Below, one piece after another: positions 5,501-45,562 of a DNA stretch of 64,000 nt (positions within the stretch are counted from its first letter, which is position 1; every line of letters starts with the position of its first letter). The stretch covers positions 181,958 through 245,957 of the forward strand of contig JBAQEZ010000003.1 of the NCBI GenBank assembly GCA_049287005.1, read 5' to 3'. Source of the stretch: Candidatus Moraniibacteriota bacterium. Lineage in GTDB: Bacteria; Patescibacteriota; Minisyncoccia; Moranbacterales; UBA1568. The notes beneath the pieces are model-generated. The model saw only the letters and a list, made by a program, of their open reading frames with translations, had not been told where the DNA came from and did no database searches. The translations under genes were made by a program, and so were the position numbers.

Positions 5501-7033
5501 ATGTTTCCCTGTATCAGAGGGTATCAGCGGAGCAACTCATCTCGTATCATGTGTCTTGCATCAATTATCTTGTATCCTATGTCATCCGTTCAAATCTATG
5601 CTTTCTTGCGCACACTTCTCGTATGGGGAGTTGGGATTTTTGTCTGTGTTGTCGTCGTACGAGGAACGGTTCCTGTAGCCTCTGCCGCCGATCAAGCCTT
5701 GCCCCAGGAAGCCCTGGTTGATTTGGTGAAACCATCAGTGGTACGTATTGCGCAGCATGTGAGCGGAACGGCGAAAATCCCTCACATCAAGGTAGATATA
5801 CTCAAGCATCTGGTGGCCGTGGTGCCCAATGCCTTTACTGAGGTGCCAGTGGACGAGTATTTGGTGGGAAGCGGTTTTGTCATCCATCCGGATGGGTATA
5901 TCGCTACCAATTCCCATGTGGTTTCCGAACAGACAGCCAAAGAAATGATGGCGTCTGATAGCGCTTTGGCGGCGCTGTATGAAAATGCTCTTTTCCTCAG
6001 CGACGTGGAGATGCAGAGTTTTTTACAGACCGAAACAGCCAATAGCTTTAGCAGACAGGTGCTGCAGTTCGTCATCACTCAGAGCGTTTTCGAGCTGAAA
6101 AGCGAAGTAGCAGTCCTCCGTCCAGCTTCCCTGAAGAAGTCGATACCTGATCTGCTGGCTGACGGTTTTCCCGCAACCGTGATTGCAGTGAATGATAACT
6201 TTTCGGAGGATGAGATGGATGTCGCATTGATAAAGATTAATGAATCGCGCTTGCCGGCACTGGCGCTCGGGGAAGGCGGGGCGATTACGGTCGGGAAAAA
6301 AGCGTTTATTTTCGGCTTTCCGGCTACAGCGGAACCCAATCAAAATCATTCTCTGGAAGCCACGTTCACCCAAGGAGTGGTCAGTGCTATCAAACAATCG
6401 ACCGACAAGAGTTTCAAATTGTTCCAGACCGATGCCAAAGTATCCGAAGGGTCGAGCGGTGGTCCTCTTTTCGATGAGTACGGAGCGGTCGTCGGCATAG
6501 TCACTTTTCAAACGGATGAATTGAATCGCTCGCAGGGAGATAATTTTGCCTTTGCTTTGCCGATTGAAATGATACGGGATGCGGCGCGGAAAGCCGGAGT
6601 TCCTCTCTCTGAAGGGCAATACGGCGATAATTTCAAAAAAGGGTTTCTGTATTTTTCTGAGAAACAATGCACGAAAGCAGAAAGTGCTTTCCGCGCAGCG
6701 CTCGAGGGGAATAACGGAACCTTTGTCACAGAGAACGGCCTAGGGGCATATTTCCAGAAATGTGATGCATGGCAAAAGGCGGGGACGGCACTCAATACTC
6801 GCTTCGATAGGATCAAAGCCTCGGTTCGTGCTTTGGGTGATCCCTTTTTCTACCTAGCGGGCGTAGGTCTGCTCTTCGTAGGATTTTTTGGCGGTGCGTT
6901 GTACTGGGTCTTGCGACAGGTGCAACGCGAAGAACGGGAAATCGCGGTGTTGGAAACGCGTTTACGCGCTGATGAGCATCTGCTCAAGCGGTACGAAAGC
7001 GGATCAGTAAAAAAAGAGAAGAAGATTCTTTGA
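5501..7033 (+). CDS. Trypsin-like (S1 family) serine protease with an N-terminal signal/TM segment and a C-terminal TM plus coiled-coil tail. The start is uncertain (alternative Met at 5579).
   Basis: Catalytic triad context: His in GYIATNSHVV, Asp in DVALIKI, Ser in GSSGGPLF. C-terminal TM LAGVGLLFVGFFGGALYWV. Confidence 0.8.
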   Translation: MFPCIRGYQRSNSSRIMCLASIILYPMSSVQIYAFLRTLLVWGVGIFVCVVVVRGTVPVASAADQALPQEALVDLVKPSVVRIAQHVSGTAKIPHIKVDILKHLVAVVPNAFTEVPVDEYLVGSGFVIHPDGYIATNSHVVSEQTAKEMMASDSALAALYENALFLSDVEMQSFLQTETANSFSRQVLQFVITQSVFELKSEVAVLRPASLKKSIPDLLADGFPATVIAVNDNFSEDEMDVALIKINESRLPALALGEGGAITVGKKAFIFGFPATAEPNQNHSLEATFTQGVVSAIKQSTDKSFKLFQTDAKVSEGSSGGPLFDEYGAVVGIVTFQTDELNRSQGDNFAFALPIEMIRDAARKAGVPLSEGQYGDNFKKGFLYFSEKQCTKAESAFRAALEGNNGTFVTENGLGAYFQKCDAWQKAGTALNTRFDRIKASVRALGDPFFYLAGVGLLFVGFFGGALYWVLRQVQREEREIAVLETRLRADEHLLKRYESGSVKKEKKIL

Positions 7034-7055
7034 GGGAGAAAACAAACAATCACCT

Positions 7056-8825
7056 ATGATCAGTCTTTTTGATATTTTGTGGAGCAGGGAATTCCGCTTA
7101 CCGTTTCTGATCATCCTGTGCATATTTTTATCCTTGCTGCTCGGCGAGAAAACGGTGTACGGGGTGGCGATTCTTTTCGGTATAGCGCAGCTGTTGTCCG
7201 AATCCTCTGCGCGCATCAAAAAGAAGCGCTGGAACTTGGACTACCTGGCATTTTTGGCGTTGGGGACATCTCTCGTCTTGGGGGAGTTTTTGGCCGGGGC
7301 AGTGATCGCCCTTATGGTTGCGGTCAGCGCGGCTTTGGAAAAATATGGCGCGACGCGAGCGGAGAAAACGTTGCGAGGGCTTTTTGAAAATATTCCCAAA
7401 ATAGCGCTGATAGTGACTGACGCGGGAACCCATGCGGTGTCTCTGCCGGCGATTCGAGAGGGGGATGTTTTGCTGGTGCGGCCGAATGAAATGCTCGCGT
7501 TTGACGGGTATCTGTTATCGGATCGCGCACTTTTGGATGAGGCGAATCTGACGGGGGAAATGGAGCCTGTTGTTTATGAAGAGACCGCCATGCTCAAAAG
7601 CGGTTCCGTCAATGTCGGTCAGGTGCTGACGATGCGCGTCCTCGGTGATTTCGAACACTCGAGTTATCGGAAAATACTTTCTTTGGTGGAAGAGGGCAAA
7701 TCGCATCCCGCTCCGATGGTACGTCTCGCGGAACGGTACAATATCTACTTCACGTTTTTTTCGCTCGTCCTGGCGTTCGGAGCGTATTTCTCGTTTGGCG
7801 ATTGGCAGCGTTTTCTGGCGGTACTGGTGATCGCGACACCCTGTCCGCTCTTGATCGCCGCTCCGGTTAGCTTTATCGGCGGGTTGAACAAAGCGGCGCG
7901 AAAAAATATTATCATCAAGAGTCCGCTCATCCTGGAACTACTGGCCAAAACGAAGATGTTTTTTTTCGACAAGACCGGTACTCTCACGCTGGGTGAACCT
8001 CGTTTGAAAAGAGTGGAATTGTTGGACAAAGCGTTTTCACAAGAAAAAGCGCTATCTATCGCGGCAGCGTTGGAGCAGCATTCCTTTCATCCTATTGCCA
8101 AAGCCATCGTTCGCGAACACGCCCTGCACGAAGGGACGATACTGGTAGCAGAAGAGGTGGAAGAAAAAATCGGCGAAGGTATTTTTGGGACGATAGCAGG
8201 GGCAGAGTACGGTATCGTGCAGACGAAGGCCAAGACGGAAAACGGGATTGTCGTCGATTTGGTCGTCTCCGCTACGGCGGTCGCGAGATTTTATTTTGAT
8301 GATGAGCTGAAGCCGCAGGTCAGCGATGTTTTCACATACTTGCGTAGTCATGGCTATACGCTGGGGATTTTGACTGGCGATAAGAAAAAGAATGCGGAAC
8401 GGATATTCGGACATTTCAAGCTACCCATCTATGCTGAATGTCGACCAGAACGCAAAACGGAACTCATACAGCGTTATCAGAGAGAGGGGAATCTGGTGGG
8501 TATGGTCGGTGATGGCATGAATGATGCTCCGGCGTTGGCTCTGGCAGATATCGGCATTGTGTTTTCCGGAACGGAAAATAGTGCCTCTATCGAGGCGGCC
8601 GATGTGGCTATTTTCGGACATGACGCTGCCCTCATCCGCGATGCGATCCATATCGGACGCAGATCTTATCACGTGGCTTTCCAGAGCATCCTGATCGGTA
8701 TCGGCTTATCGGCACTGGGCATGATCCTGGCTTTTTTCGGTCTGATATCGCCTTTGTATGGCGCGATTCTCCAAGAAGTCATCGATGTCATCGTGATCAT
8801 CAACGCCCTGCGCTCGACGTATTAG
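7056..8825 (+). CDS. P-type cation-transporting ATPase; short P1B-like form with no N-terminal metal-binding domain
   Basis: Motifs TGE (LTGEMEPV), TM CP-x (ATPCPLLIAAP), DKTGTLT and GDGMNDAPAL. Confidence 0.85.
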   Translation: MISLFDILWSREFRLPFLIILCIFLSLLLGEKTVYGVAILFGIAQLLSESSARIKKKRWNLDYLAFLALGTSLVLGEFLAGAVIALMVAVSAALEKYGATRAEKTLRGLFENIPKIALIVTDAGTHAVSLPAIREGDVLLVRPNEMLAFDGYLLSDRALLDEANLTGEMEPVVYEETAMLKSGSVNVGQVLTMRVLGDFEHSSYRKILSLVEEGKSHPAPMVRLAERYNIYFTFFSLVLAFGAYFSFGDWQRFLAVLVIATPCPLLIAAPVSFIGGLNKAARKNIIIKSPLILELLAKTKMFFFDKTGTLTLGEPRLKRVELLDKAFSQEKALSIAAALEQHSFHPIAKAIVREHALHEGTILVAEEVEEKIGEGIFGTIAGAEYGIVQTKAKTENGIVVDLVVSATAVARFYFDDELKPQVSDVFTYLRSHGYTLGILTGDKKKNAERIFGHFKLPIYAECRPERKTELIQRYQREGNLVGMVGDGMNDAPALALADIGIVFSGTENSASIEAADVAIFGHDAALIRDAIHIGRRSYHVAFQSILIGIGLSALGMILAFFGLISPLYGAILQEVIDVIVIINALRSTY

Positions 8826-8840
8826 AAACGAGGGAAACAA

Positions 8841-8874
8841 AAAGACTCCGCACGTTTTTATGGGAGTCTTTTCG
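8841..8874. terminator. Convergent-gene terminator; stronger in the minus orientation
   Basis: AAGACTCC-gcacgtttttat-GGAGTCTT. The minus-strand reading is followed by TTTTGTTT. Confidence 0.55.
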
Positions 8875-8890
8875 GCTGTAACGCCTGTCG

Positions 8891-10087
8891 TTACTTGTAT
8901 CTCAGAGCTTCCAGGGTATCGATATGAGAGGCTTTGCGGGCAGGGAAGATGCCGGTCAAGAATCCGATAAATGCACCAAAGGTAATGACGGTGACGATAA
9001 ACCACAGCGGGCTGTAGAAGAGGTCGACTGTTCCGCCGCCAAAGCGGTTCGCCACCAGGTTGATGACGATATTGAGACCCTTGCCCCCGAGATATCCGAG
9101 GATTACTCCTCCGAGCGCTCCCAAAAATCCCATCAACGTGGATTCCACGATGAACATCATCGAAATGCTCCCGCGTGAAGCGCCGATGGCTTTCATGATG
9201 CCGATTTCTTCCGTCCGTTCCAGAAGCGCGATGGTCATGGTGTTGAACATGCCGATGGCCGAAACGATAAGGGCTATCATGCCGAAGATCATCAGCACTA
9301 TCTGGACGATGCTGAAAACTTTGTTCGCCTGGTCGATGGTTTCGGAAATAGAAGAGGCGATAAAACCGCGACTCTCTATCTCTCCGCGCACCGCGTTCAG
9401 CACGCTGGTGGTCAGACATTTTACTTTCAGCTTGGTGTAGCTTTCAATGGGAATAGTCGTGAGAGAATCCAGTGAAAGGTAAATGATGTTTTCTTCACCG
9501 GAGACGACGCCGATGACGGTGTAGGGGGTTGGTAGCGTGTACGATGATTTTTGGCCGGACTGGTCCGAGGCAGTGCTTTGGAAGAGCGTGAGCAGAGCGG
9601 TTTTCCCCAACATCTTTTCCGGAGAAAGGTTGAAGATACGCGCCATGGCCGATGTGATGACAATATTTTGGCGCTCGTCTTGAGTGAAAAACCGCCCGTT
9701 TTCAATTTTCAAACCCTCATTTTTGAGGAGCGAAGCAGAAGAGCTTACCGTGCTGACATCGAGAGTGATATCATCGAATTTTCCTTGGCCAGGCGATTCC
9801 AACACCGGAATGACCTCGACGACATCCTGGATATTTTTGAGTTCTTCAGCGGTGGCGCTGTCTAGCTTTTGTCCACTATCGCCTTTCCCCAGCGTGATAT
9901 CCAGCGTGACGAGTGCGTCCGAAGTAGTGATTTTTTGGAGTAGTGTCCGTTGTAATCCGTAACCGAAGGAAACCAGAAAAATAATGGCAGCGATGCCGAC
10001 GCTCATACCAAGAATCGTCAGGAGCGTACGCATGGTGCGAGCCTTGAACATGCGGAGGGAGAGTTTGAGGAGATCGAAAAAACGCAT
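8891..10087 (-). CDS. ABC transporter permease of the FtsX/MacB/LolCE family
   Basis: N-terminal TM MRTLLTILGMSVGIAAIIFLVSFGYG, a large periplasmic loop, and three C-terminal TMs typical of the FtsX domain. Confidence 0.8.
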   Translation of the reverse strand: MRFFDLLKLSLRMFKARTMRTLLTILGMSVGIAAIIFLVSFGYGLQRTLLQKITTSDALVTLDITLGKGDSGQKLDSATAEELKNIQDVVEVIPVLESPGQGKFDDITLDVSTVSSSASLLKNEGLKIENGRFFTQDERQNIVITSAMARIFNLSPEKMLGKTALLTLFQSTASDQSGQKSSYTLPTPYTVIGVVSGEENIIYLSLDSLTTIPIESYTKLKVKCLTTSVLNAVRGEIESRGFIASSISETIDQANKVFSIVQIVLMIFGMIALIVSAIGMFNTMTIALLERTEEIGIMKAIGASRGSISMMFIVESTLMGFLGALGGVILGYLGGKGLNIVINLVANRFGGGTVDLFYSPLWFIVTVITFGAFIGFLTGIFPARKASHIDTLEALRYK

Positions 10088-43483: not shown

Positions 43484-45562
43484 ATGAAAAGGCACTCCTA
43501 TTACAATAATGATATTTGCGTTGTTGGCGTGGGGTGTGTTTTGCCTGGCGCGCGTAATCCTCGTGAATTTTGGAAGAACATCCTTGCAGAAAACTGTTCC
43601 ATAAAAGAAATGCCCGAAGAAAGGTTCAAAAAAAGCCTTTATTTCAGCAACGACAAAAACGAAAAGGACAAAGCGTATTCCAACCAGGCGGCGTTCATTG
43701 AAAATAGCTGGCTGGAAAAAATATGCGAAGATGCGGGCTTGGATTTCTCAAAAAACAATAGGCTGCAGGTCATGTCCGTTGAAGCGGCGCGACAAGCTCT
43801 GTCTTGTTTACGAGCCGGTTCCCTGAAAAAAAGAACGGAAAACACCTCCGTGTTTTTGGGATGCATGGAAACGGACGCCGGCTTTGCTTTAGAGAAATTT
43901 TTTTCTTATAATGAAACATCGCTGAAGAAATATATTGAAAAAAGCGGACTGAAGGATCAGCAGCGGATTTTTGGAGCGATCAAAAAACATTGCGGCGGAG
44001 GCGGGAGCACCGCCGAAAATGAAAAAATCGCGACGGTGCTGGCAATGTCAGCGGTCAGCGCGATCAAGAAACAATTCAGCGTGCGAGGAGAAGGTGTTCT
44101 CGTGGATGCCGCCTGCGCTTCGTCTTTGGCGGCTCTCGATACGGCAGCGAATGCCTTGAGAAACTATCAGACTGATTTCGCGATTACCGGAGGGGCGGAG
44201 AGCAATTTGAAACCCGATTCTTTCGTGTTATTCAGCAAGGTTGGCGCCTTATCGAGCGGCACCTGCCTGCCTTTCGACAAAAGAACCGACGGTCTGTCTC
44301 AGGGCGAGGGAGCGGTCATTTTCGCTCTACAAAGGATGGAAGACGCGGTGAAAGACAAGAACAAAATTTATGGCGTCATACAATCCATCGGCGGTTCCAG
44401 TGACGGCAGAGGGTCCAGTCTGTTTTCGCCGTCTTTGGGGGGTCAGCTTTTGGCTTATGAAAGAGCGTATCAAGGCCTCGATAAAGAGAGTGTCGATTAT
44501 ATCGAATGTCATGGCACTGGCACGAAATTGGGTGATTCGATGGAAGTGAAATCACTGAACAAATTTTTTCCTAGCGGGAAGATCCCTATCGGTTCGGTAA
44601 AATCACTGATCGGACACACCAAAGGAGCCGCCGGAGCCGCCGGACTTTTGAAATGTCTTTTGATGATGGAAAAGAAAACGATCCCGTCTTCGCGATATAT
44701 CCGATCCTCTATGGCGCCTCAAGAGGGGACAGTCTATACGAATAAAAAACCGATGCAGATTCGGCGCAAAAACAAGCCACTGCGTTTCGGAGTTTCTTCA
44801 TTCGGATTCGGCAATATCAATTACCATGTGGTGCTGGATGAATTCAAGGAGAACGGGGCAGTGATGCCGCCAGCGGTGAAGAAGCCGGCGGGTGAGCGCG
44901 AAATCGCGGTCATAGGAGAGGGTTCGGCGCGTTACGATGAAATCGATCCCAGTTTGTTCGTGGAAAAATTCAAGATTCCTCCGAAAAGCCTTCCGCACAC
45001 GGACAAAATACAATTATTGGCGCTGTCCGCCGTGCATGACGCTTTCGAAAAATCCAACATCAAAATCGATTCCTTGGATAAGGAAAAAGTGTCCGTTCTC
45101 TCCGCTTCCATCATCGGATTGGATGCGGCTTTGGATTTTGCTTATCGGATAATGACGTTTGAATTTCAGGAGGCTTTGAATTTTCTTGATGAAGAGTCGC
45201 TCAATGCGATGGTAACGTATAAGAACAGGTTTCCTGAAGTGACGGAAGATACCGGTCCCGGTATTCTGAACAATGTCATTGCGGGCAGGATCTGTAACAC
45301 GTTTGATTTCAAAGGGAAGAATTTCAATATTGATGCGGATCTCAATTCTTTTCCTGCAGCCTTGAAGATAGCTCTGGCAGAGTTTGCCAGATATGATGGC
45401 ATCATCGCGCTGGTGTTTTGCGAAGAAAAGCTCGATAAGAAAAGAATGCGCATTGCAAGGAAGCAGGCCGTATCCTGTATCTTGCTCTCGACGCTTGATG
45501 TGGCGAAACAAGAAAATTACCCGATTCGCAGGCTGATTAAAAGCGTACACTATCATGAATAA
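43484..45562 (+). CDS. Type I PKS-like beta-ketoacyl synthase with a C-terminal degenerate KS-like (chain-length-factor-type) half
   Basis: KS active-site Cys in VLVDAACASSLAALD, His in ECHGTGTKLGD and His in SLIGHTKGAAGAAG. The C-terminal 260 aa are KS-like but have Ser/Gln in place of the catalytic Cys (VLSASIIGL). Confidence 0.85.
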   Translation: MKRHSYYNNDICVVGVGCVLPGARNPREFWKNILAENCSIKEMPEERFKKSLYFSNDKNEKDKAYSNQAAFIENSWLEKICEDAGLDFSKNNRLQVMSVEAARQALSCLRAGSLKKRTENTSVFLGCMETDAGFALEKFFSYNETSLKKYIEKSGLKDQQRIFGAIKKHCGGGGSTAENEKIATVLAMSAVSAIKKQFSVRGEGVLVDAACASSLAALDTAANALRNYQTDFAITGGAESNLKPDSFVLFSKVGALSSGTCLPFDKRTDGLSQGEGAVIFALQRMEDAVKDKNKIYGVIQSIGGSSDGRGSSLFSPSLGGQLLAYERAYQGLDKESVDYIECHGTGTKLGDSMEVKSLNKFFPSGKIPIGSVKSLIGHTKGAAGAAGLLKCLLMMEKKTIPSSRYIRSSMAPQEGTVYTNKKPMQIRRKNKPLRFGVSSFGFGNINYHVVLDEFKENGAVMPPAVKKPAGEREIAVIGEGSARYDEIDPSLFVEKFKIPPKSLPHTDKIQLLALSAVHDAFEKSNIKIDSLDKEKVSVLSASIIGLDAALDFAYRIMTFEFQEALNFLDEESLNAMVTYKNRFPEVTEDTGPGILNNVIAGRICNTFDFKGKNFNIDADLNSFPAALKIALAEFARYDGIIALVFCEEKLDKKRMRIARKQAVSCILLSTLDVAKQENYPIRRLIKSVHYHE

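Follow-up and report, generated by a model that had tools for sequence, protein, structure and literature searches.

What does a ketosynthase (KS) protein carry behind its catalytic domain when it continues for more than 200 residues and then ends? This question is raised by a KS gene of Candidatus Moraniibacteriota, a candidate-phyla-radiation (CPR) bacterium. The gene lies in the window analyzed here, a stretch of 64,000 nucleotides (nt) of contig JBAQEZ010000003.1 (assembly GCA_049287005.1, positions 181,958 to 245,957). A preliminary description of this DNA had reported a 692-amino-acid (aa) product with a canonical Cys-His-His KS in its N-terminal part and a further 260 aa of dead, KS-like sequence resembling a chain-length factor (CLF). 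The open reading frame (ORF) was found as reported, on the forward strand at 43484 to 45562, and its product is 100% identical to a protein (P0001) annotated by NCBI in a Candidatus Moraniibacteriota metagenome-assembled genome (MAG). We found that residues ~473 to 692 correspond to the N-terminal half of a ketosynthase in a catalytically dead form, and this domain, called half-CLF here, probably serves the active KS as its partner in cis.

More than 110 full-length homologues with the same architecture were recovered, ranging in size from 639 to 718 aa, and 113 of them were used for the conservation counts, the column statistics and the AlphaFold2 alignment described below. The N-terminal domain is an active-type KS: PF00109 was matched by residues 9 to 288 and PF02801 by residues 296 to 403, and the triad Cys211/His343/His378 is invariant in 113/113 homologues, in agreement with the preliminary description. 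PF16197, the canonical linker family, was reached over residues 413 to 459 (profile positions 9-51 of 111) with 24.3 bits versus a cut-off of 33. The best full-length match of the KS among Protein Data Bank (PDB) sequences was the KS of PfaC (6RIW, residues 10-456 versus 3-454, E 2.7e-54). The top NCBIfam match of the protein was the PfaA model TIGR02813, far under its whole-protein cut-off because PfaA is much longer.

When residues 461 to 692 were scanned alone, the only Pfam match was to PF00109, at profile positions 76-173 of 252 (E 2e-9), and the N-terminal KS part of TIGR02813 was matched at E 6e-12. Comparison of the C-terminal profile with the family's own KS profile by hhalign gave a probability of 97.4% (E 1.6e-11) over 180 aligned columns, pairing residues 505-688 with KS residues 90-302. 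The alignment stops at KS residue 302 because the protein ends there, and this point coincides with the end of PF00109, the boundary between the two thiolase-fold halves. No counterpart of the second half, which corresponds to PF02801 and holds both His residues, was found in the C-terminal region by Pfam, by hhalign or in the 113 homologues, none of which has more than 21 residues after the half-domain. The start of the following gene was considered as a place for the missing CLF half and rejected, as only 28 residues precede its acyltransferase (AT) domain, and ~50 in fused relatives. At the level of the fold, a model of the domain alone aligned over 165 to 204 residues with KS chains, and its best matches were ketosynthases of polyketide synthases (PKSs) rather than an unrelated thiolase-fold protein. 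Since these matches are far beyond chance, the region flagged in the preliminary description (44800-45562, residues ~439-692) does contain a second KS-like element, although one of ~220 to 232 aa and not of 260 aa.

The loss of the active site was also borne out, at another residue than the one proposed. Ser in VLSASIIGL had been taken as the replacement of the active Cys. In hhalign, VSVLSASIIGLD is paired with TSVFL-GCMETD, that is, with the KS strand TSVFLGCM (residues ~119-128). The true counterpart of Cys211 is Leu620 in three independent alignments: the BLAST self-alignment (FSVRGEGVLVDAAC211ASS versus FDFKGKNFNIDADL620NSF), the hidden Markov model alignment of the family profile to the KS motif DTACSS of CTB1, and the profile-profile alignment by hhalign. 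Among the 113 sequences, this column holds Phe in 47, Leu in 27, Gln in 9, Thr in 7, Ser in 4, Ile in 4, Val in 3, Glu in 3 and other residues in the remainder; Cys occurs in 0/113.

Detection of more distant relatives required a profile, as a PDB search with the single C-terminal sequence returned only chance matches to phage proteins (E ~1). Used against PDB sequences, the family profile matched CTB1 at E 1.5e-6 and the CLF of 6RIW only at E 0.29. The domain is Cys-less and KS-derived, in line with the preliminary description; its similarity to the CLF of PfaC itself is weak. Against 1.84 billion representative proteins, the half-domain profile gave 4737 matches at E <=1e-3. The strongest were proteins of ~690 aa with the domain at ~460-690, and weaker ones (E 1e-25 to 1e-30) fell on true KS domains of large multimodular PKSs, in their N-terminal halves. 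The half-domain is thus clearly derived from type I PKS-like ketosynthases. A helical insertion of ~45-60 residues, as compared with the Pfam KS model, was observed in both the KS (~128-190) and the half-CLF (~547-590). The two insertions align with one another in hhalign, which suggests that the half-CLF originated in the duplication of a KS from the same lineage, one resembling the synthases of polyunsaturated fatty acids (PUFAs).

In 113/113 full-length homologues, from CPR, DPANN, Bdellovibrionota and other phyla, the half-domain occurs with unchanged boundaries, and it is thus not absent from orthologs. Its mean identity to the window protein is 43% versus 49% for the KS, and the two identities are correlated across homologues (r = 0.95). 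Thirty of its positions, including TEDTGPGILNNVIAGR, are at least 85% conserved, and these cluster in TEDTGPGILNNVIAGRICNxFDFxGKNFNID (residues 587-617), a family signature directly N-terminal to the Cys-equivalent position. Within it, G593 is invariant, and E588, L595, N596, N597, V598, G601, R602, N605, F607, G611, N615 and D617 are at least 90% conserved. The pattern NNVIAGRICNTFDFKGKNFNID, cited in the preliminary description as KS-like, is present as residues 596-617 and belongs to this most conserved part. To judge from these sequences, the half-domain is conserved and not decaying.

A KS-CLF-like pseudo-dimer, as the preliminary description had envisaged, was also returned by structure prediction. 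The AlphaFold2 model has a mean predicted local distance difference test score (pLDDT) of 95.6 and a predicted template modeling (TM) score of 0.95; the half-domain is modeled at pLDDT >90 almost throughout, and the sole low-confidence block inside the model is residues 461-470 (mean pLDDT 67). In an independent Foldseek search, the crystal structure of the PfaC KS-CLF (6RIW) ranked first, with an E value of 8e-46 and a query-normalized TM score of 0.77, versus 0.51-0.56 for the remainder. The model superposes on 6RIW over 642 residues at 2.4 Å, and all other PDB chains align to the KS alone (~340-440 residues). The prediction therefore puts the half-domain at the site on the KS that, in the KS-CLF pseudo-dimer, is taken by the CLF's N-terminal half.

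The gene next to the KS-halfCLF gene encodes a 1152-aa protein with the domains AT, acyl carrier protein (ACP), ketoreductase (KR) and dehydratase (DH), and an 8-nt overlap (ATGAATAA) joins its start to the stop of the KS gene. One ACP was recognized, by a PP-binding match within residues 341-442 (21.6 bits versus a cut-off of 20.8), and the HxxxGxxxxP motif of the DH was read in the translation. Among 33 related loci, all those on sufficiently long contigs show KS, half-CLF, AT and ACP-KR-DH collinear in this order. In 29 of 30 loci, the KS-halfCLF gene stops where the AT gene starts or shortly before it, and in one locus the two are fused. The fused case is a Bdellovibrionales MAG (L025, 2359-6498), in which the KS-halfCLF frame runs into AT-ACP-KR-DH without a stop; it is the only such case among the 30, and it agrees with fused proteins of 1779 to 1981 aa in the representative library. 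Pfam scans of four of these (P0132, P0140, P0157 and P0173) recognized KS, half-KS, AT and KR in all and DH in two. The myxobacterial proteins P0088 and P0092 (~1130 aa) were rejected as fused orthologues, as they hold two full KS domains in the opposite order. In these proteins, a full-length dead KS comes first, with Phe or Tyr for Cys (VDAGFASS / VDAGYSSA), followed by an active KS and an AT, and they represent a different solution.

How could half a thiolase fold serve a ketosynthase? Thiolase-fold condensing enzymes are obligate dimers in which the N-terminal halves contribute most of the interface and of the acyl pocket, and a full-length CLF fills the partner role in PfaC and in type II systems. 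Thus, a dead N-terminal half in cis can supply what the KS needs from a partner. We consider it likely that the half-CLF is the cis pseudo-dimer partner of the KS in a compact, iterative, PUFA synthase-like PKS devoid of an enoylreductase (ER). Folding back within its own chain, the half-domain would cover the dimerization face of the active KS and yield an intramolecular pseudo-heterodimer comparable to the KS-CLF didomain of PfaC and the ApeO-ApeC heterodimer; it would replace the second KS protomer, complete and close the acyl-binding tunnel, and probably help to set chain length. It would also lead directly into the AT subunit, whose gene comes next, is translationally coupled to that of the KS and is fused in some relatives. 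Together with a phosphopantetheinyl transferase (PPTase), KS-halfCLF and AT-ACP-KR-DH would act as the synthase, which is expected to yield an unsaturated acyl-ACP, polyenoyl or other, and a membrane acyltransferase-like protein may transfer this product to an envelope acceptor. A set of one KS, AT, ACP, KR and DH that lacks an ER and further modules is read most economically as an iterative synthase whose product is an acyl chain of unsaturated or polyene type, and the single-module set fits the iterative mechanism favored in the preliminary description.

Several points weigh against this proposal. The residue at the Cys-equivalent position varies among homologues, which argues against a specific chemical role there. 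By sequence, similarity to the CLF of PfaC is as weak as stated above, and ApeC, another half-sized CLF, was not matched in the profile search of PDB sequences at E <=1, such that the resemblance to CLF and ApeC may reflect convergent truncation and not shared descent. The pseudo-dimer geometry is a prediction, and AlphaFold, having seen many KS dimers, may place any KS-like piece at the dimer interface. Even the "CLF" of PUFA synthases is, to our knowledge, not firmly established as a determinant of chain length. From the genes around the cluster, no product, thioesterase or ER could be identified, and a single extension of an externally supplied acyl starter is possible as well, an AMP-ligase gene being located upstream.

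Three other explanations of the half-domain were considered. It could be a purely structural adaptor that replaces the KS-AT linker and docks AT-ACP-KR-DH, without any influence on tunnel or chain length. The location of the domain exactly between KS and AT, seen both in the gene order and in the four fused relatives, would suit such a role, and so would the translational coupling of the split genes, the partial, below-cut-off match to the PF16197 linker family and the inactive pseudo-KS that precedes the AT in gammaproteobacterial PfaB and has been suggested to be a scaffold (PMC12895367). Yet the model puts the half-domain on the dimer face of the KS, where the partner lines the tunnel in known KS-CLF pairs, and the most conserved motif flanks the former active-site helix. 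We therefore regard docking as an unlikely sole function, although the adaptor and partner roles are not mutually exclusive and could coexist.

It is very improbable that the half-domain is a pseudo-domain left over from a second KS or module, in decay and without present function. Such an origin would account for the loss of the catalytic Cys and of the whole His-His half and for the variable residue at the Cys position, but the same boundaries across phyla in all full-length homologues, a divergence rate near that of the KS, the near-invariant motifs and the confidently modeled fold all speak for a domain under constraint. More improbable still is a KSQ-like decarboxylase that primes the synthase via malonyl-ACP. 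Priming of this kind has been proposed for type II CLFs and for the KSQ domains of loading modules, and Gln does occupy the Cys-equivalent position in 9/113 homologues. The window protein has Leu, however, most homologues have Phe or Leu, and the two His residues needed for decarboxylation belong to the absent thiolase half; the KSQ role was excluded because of this absence and the rarity of Gln.

The arrangement was also compared with known systems. Like PfaC of Moritella marina (6RIW), the window protein has an active, PUFA synthase-like KS fused in cis to a Cys-less KS-like partner, and its predicted pseudo-dimer geometry matches that of 6RIW. In PfaC, however, the CLF is a complete thiolase fold of ~430 aa followed by two FabA-like DH domains, whereas in the window protein the partner comprises the N-terminal half alone (~220 aa), after which the chain ends. 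By sequence, the half-domain is nearer to the N-terminal halves of ordinary type I KS domains than to the PfaC CLF and may thus be an independent truncation. The KS-alpha/KS-beta pair of actinorhodin synthesis (1TQY) likewise combines an active KS with a Cys-less KS-like partner, and both of its chains are good fold matches, but KS-beta is full-length, forms a protein of its own and usually has Gln in place of Cys; the partner here is fused, half as long, without His-His, and carries Leu (Phe in most relatives). Because the half-domain is half a CLF and not a complete thiolase fold, the protein does not belong to the PfaC-type fused KS-CLFs or to the KS-alpha/KS-beta architecture, with which the preliminary description had equated it.

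The closest structural precedent for a half-sized CLF is ApeC of the aryl-polyene type II synthases, which keeps the first thiolase half and has lost the second (PMC8358021). The ApeO-ApeC system (6QSP and an Acinetobacter baumannii structure; PMC8358021) also shares KR and DH without ER, and its product is a polyene. ApeC is, however, a polypeptide of its own among the discrete enzymes of a type II system, unlike the half-CLF described here, which is fused to the KS and accompanied by a type I-like multidomain protein; for this reason the window protein does not belong to the ApeC type. As ApeC was not matched in the profile search of PDB sequences, the truncation may have arisen independently. 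In the PUFA synthases of gammaproteobacteria, PfaB has a KS' domain that lacks Cys-His-His, lies upstream of the AT, has a reduced length in some species and has been suggested to act as a scaffold (PMC12895367). This domain resembles the half-CLF in being an inactive KS-like domain directly before an AT, but it is poorly conserved and not fused to an active KS, in contrast to the fused and well-conserved half-CLF. Secondary-lipid synthases include KS-CLF-AT fusions such as HglC and types with the order KS-MAT-CLF-ACP-KR (PMC3098273), none of which has been described with a half CLF.

The domain order KS-AT-ACP-KR-DH, with the ACP before KR and DH, agrees with that of PfaA and of the enediyne synthases (PKSE), and a PPTase comes next as in PKSE. 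PKSE is a single polypeptide, however, whereas the domains here are split over three genes and include the extra half-KS. We know of no half-KS insert between KS and AT in PKSE or PfaA. Membership in the enediyne PKSE, which were compared by description, was rejected, as Pfam families matching their accessory proteins (thioesterase, E3-E5) were not found nearby. The AT of DynE8, which we take to be PDB entry 4AMM, was not among the top 60 PDB matches of the window AT. PUFA synthase-like features of the cassette are the PfaA-like KS, the ACP before KR and DH and the PPTase-like gene; neither a PfaD-type ER nor FabA-like DH domains were found in the genes scanned around it. In the limited open-access literature available, no paper specific to this cassette, to a cis-fused half-CLF or to PKSs of Patescibacteria, DPANN archaea or Bdellovibrio was found, which is not proof of novelty. 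The system is a compact variant of the known KS-CLF arrangement, a minimalization rather than a new principle.

Features of the KS-halfCLF locus and its surroundings (positions in the window)
Feature	Position	Strand	Remarks
KS + half-CLF gene	43484..45562	+	692-aa ORF
Active-type KS domain, residues 1-460	43484..44863	+	PF00109, PF02801, partial PF16197
Catalytic triad codons	Cys211 44114-44116, His343 44510-44512, His378 44615-44617	+	
Short linker between KS and half-CLF, residues 461-472	44864..44899	+	Low pLDDT; alignment variable and gapped
Half-size Cys-less KS-like domain (half-CLF), residues ~473-692	44900..45559	+	N-terminal thiolase-fold half only
VLSASIIGL, residues 538-546	45095..45121	+	Beta-strand equivalent to KS ~121-128
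Family signature TEDTGPGILNNVIAGRICNTFDFKGKNFNID, residues 587-617	45242..45334	+	Most conserved stretch of the half-CLF
Leu620 codon, true counterpart of Cys211	45341..45343	+	Three alignments
AT-ACP-KR-DH protein gene, 1152 aa	45555..49013	+	Acyl_transf_1, KR, PKS_DH_N, PS-DH (Pfam)
PPTase-like gene, 208 aa	49010..49636	+	Weak PF01648 ACPS, 24.8 bits versus cut-off 25
Polytopic membrane protein gene, 355 aa	49646..50713	+	Homology to HGSNAT-type relatives
AMP-binding (acyl-CoA/acyl-AMP ligase-like) protein, 725 aa	40480..42657	-	Divergent from the PKS genes
Predicted membrane protein, 137 aa	42868-43281	+	Between ligase and KS genes; no recognizable function
Protein of 732 aa	50761-52959	+	3' of the cluster; no family match, no recognizable function

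The PPTase-like gene and the membrane protein gene accompany the KS-halfCLF/AT-ACP-KR-DH pair mainly in CPR and DPANN loci. Homologues of the former lie directly 3' of the PKS genes in the CPR and DPANN loci L004, L006-L009, L017, L018 and L026. The 355-aa membrane protein had no Pfam match of its own, and it is homologous to KS-adjacent membrane proteins in L003 (Desulfobacterales, E 2e-16) and L004 (Nanoarchaeota, E 2e-9). These two proteins (8874-9983 and 5983-7089 of their loci) pass the Pfam cut-off for PF07786 HGSNAT_cat, a family of transmembrane acyltransferases. By tblastn, matches to the membrane protein adjoin PKS genes in L003, L004, L006-L011, L018 and L026, and a membrane protein with a conserved PFFPWF motif was observed as a neighbor of the PKS genes in loci from CPR, Desulfobacterales, Lentisphaerales and DPANN. 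The 355-aa protein is thus a candidate off-loading enzyme, which may release the PKS product across the membrane.

Among the genes around the cluster, Pfam and profile scans revealed no ER, no PfaD-type ER and no FabA-like DH domains, and no thioesterase was recognized near the cluster in Pfam scans. The 725-aa AMP-ligase was rejected as a core component; it is absent from nearly all other loci and may therefore be an enzyme of starter activation that is specific to the lineage. At its C terminus, an extension of ~200 aa has no Pfam match. The 732-aa protein on the other side of the cluster gave a weak match in L006 only. The rest of the window holds ordinary bacterial housekeeping genes, including mnmA, lgt, nusA and that of trigger factor.

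As to its distribution, the gene pair was found mainly in Patescibacteria, in DPANN archaea (Woesearchaeota and Nanoarchaeota) and in Bdellovibrionota (loci L003-L034), which are lineages of episymbionts and predators, and in addition in single MAGs of Lentisphaerales, Nitrospinia, Desulfobacterales and "Methanosarcinales". A scan of a genome collection recovered the gene in Patescibacteria, Woesearchaeota, ~18 Bdellovibrionota MAGs, Lentisphaerales and Nitrospinia. A gammaproteobacterial hit in that scan (L035) was a false positive, as its "half-CLF" match lies inside a genuine KS. The Nanoarchaeota contig L004 also carries genes for TBP, MCM and RNase P p30, which indicates that a bacterial-type PKS resides on a truly archaeal contig. 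A bolder proposal, which we offer only tentatively and think unlikely to hold in full, is that the cassette, including PPTase and membrane acyltransferase, is a minimal, monomeric, iterative PKS with the cis-fused half-CLF in place of the second KS protomer, spread horizontally among the ultra-small episymbionts of CPR and DPANN and the predatory Bdellovibrionota. Its polyene-like chain would be attached to the envelope by the transmembrane acyltransferase and give a dedicated lipid of host or prey interaction in organisms that otherwise have little lipid biosynthesis.

If the half-CLF does act as the partner of the KS, it would be the smallest known way to meet the need of a KS for a dimer partner within a type I-like PKS, with ~220 residues in cis replacing a whole second protomer. 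This would be of use in defining what a CLF minimally provides and in engineering compact iterative synthases. CPR bacteria and DPANN archaea are usually described as being without most lipid biosynthesis; few systems for making polyketides or lipids have been seen in them, and the cassette is one of these. What it makes could have a bearing on the construction or decoration of the envelopes of these cells, and the spread of the cassette through CPR, DPANN and Bdellovibrionota genomes is worth following.

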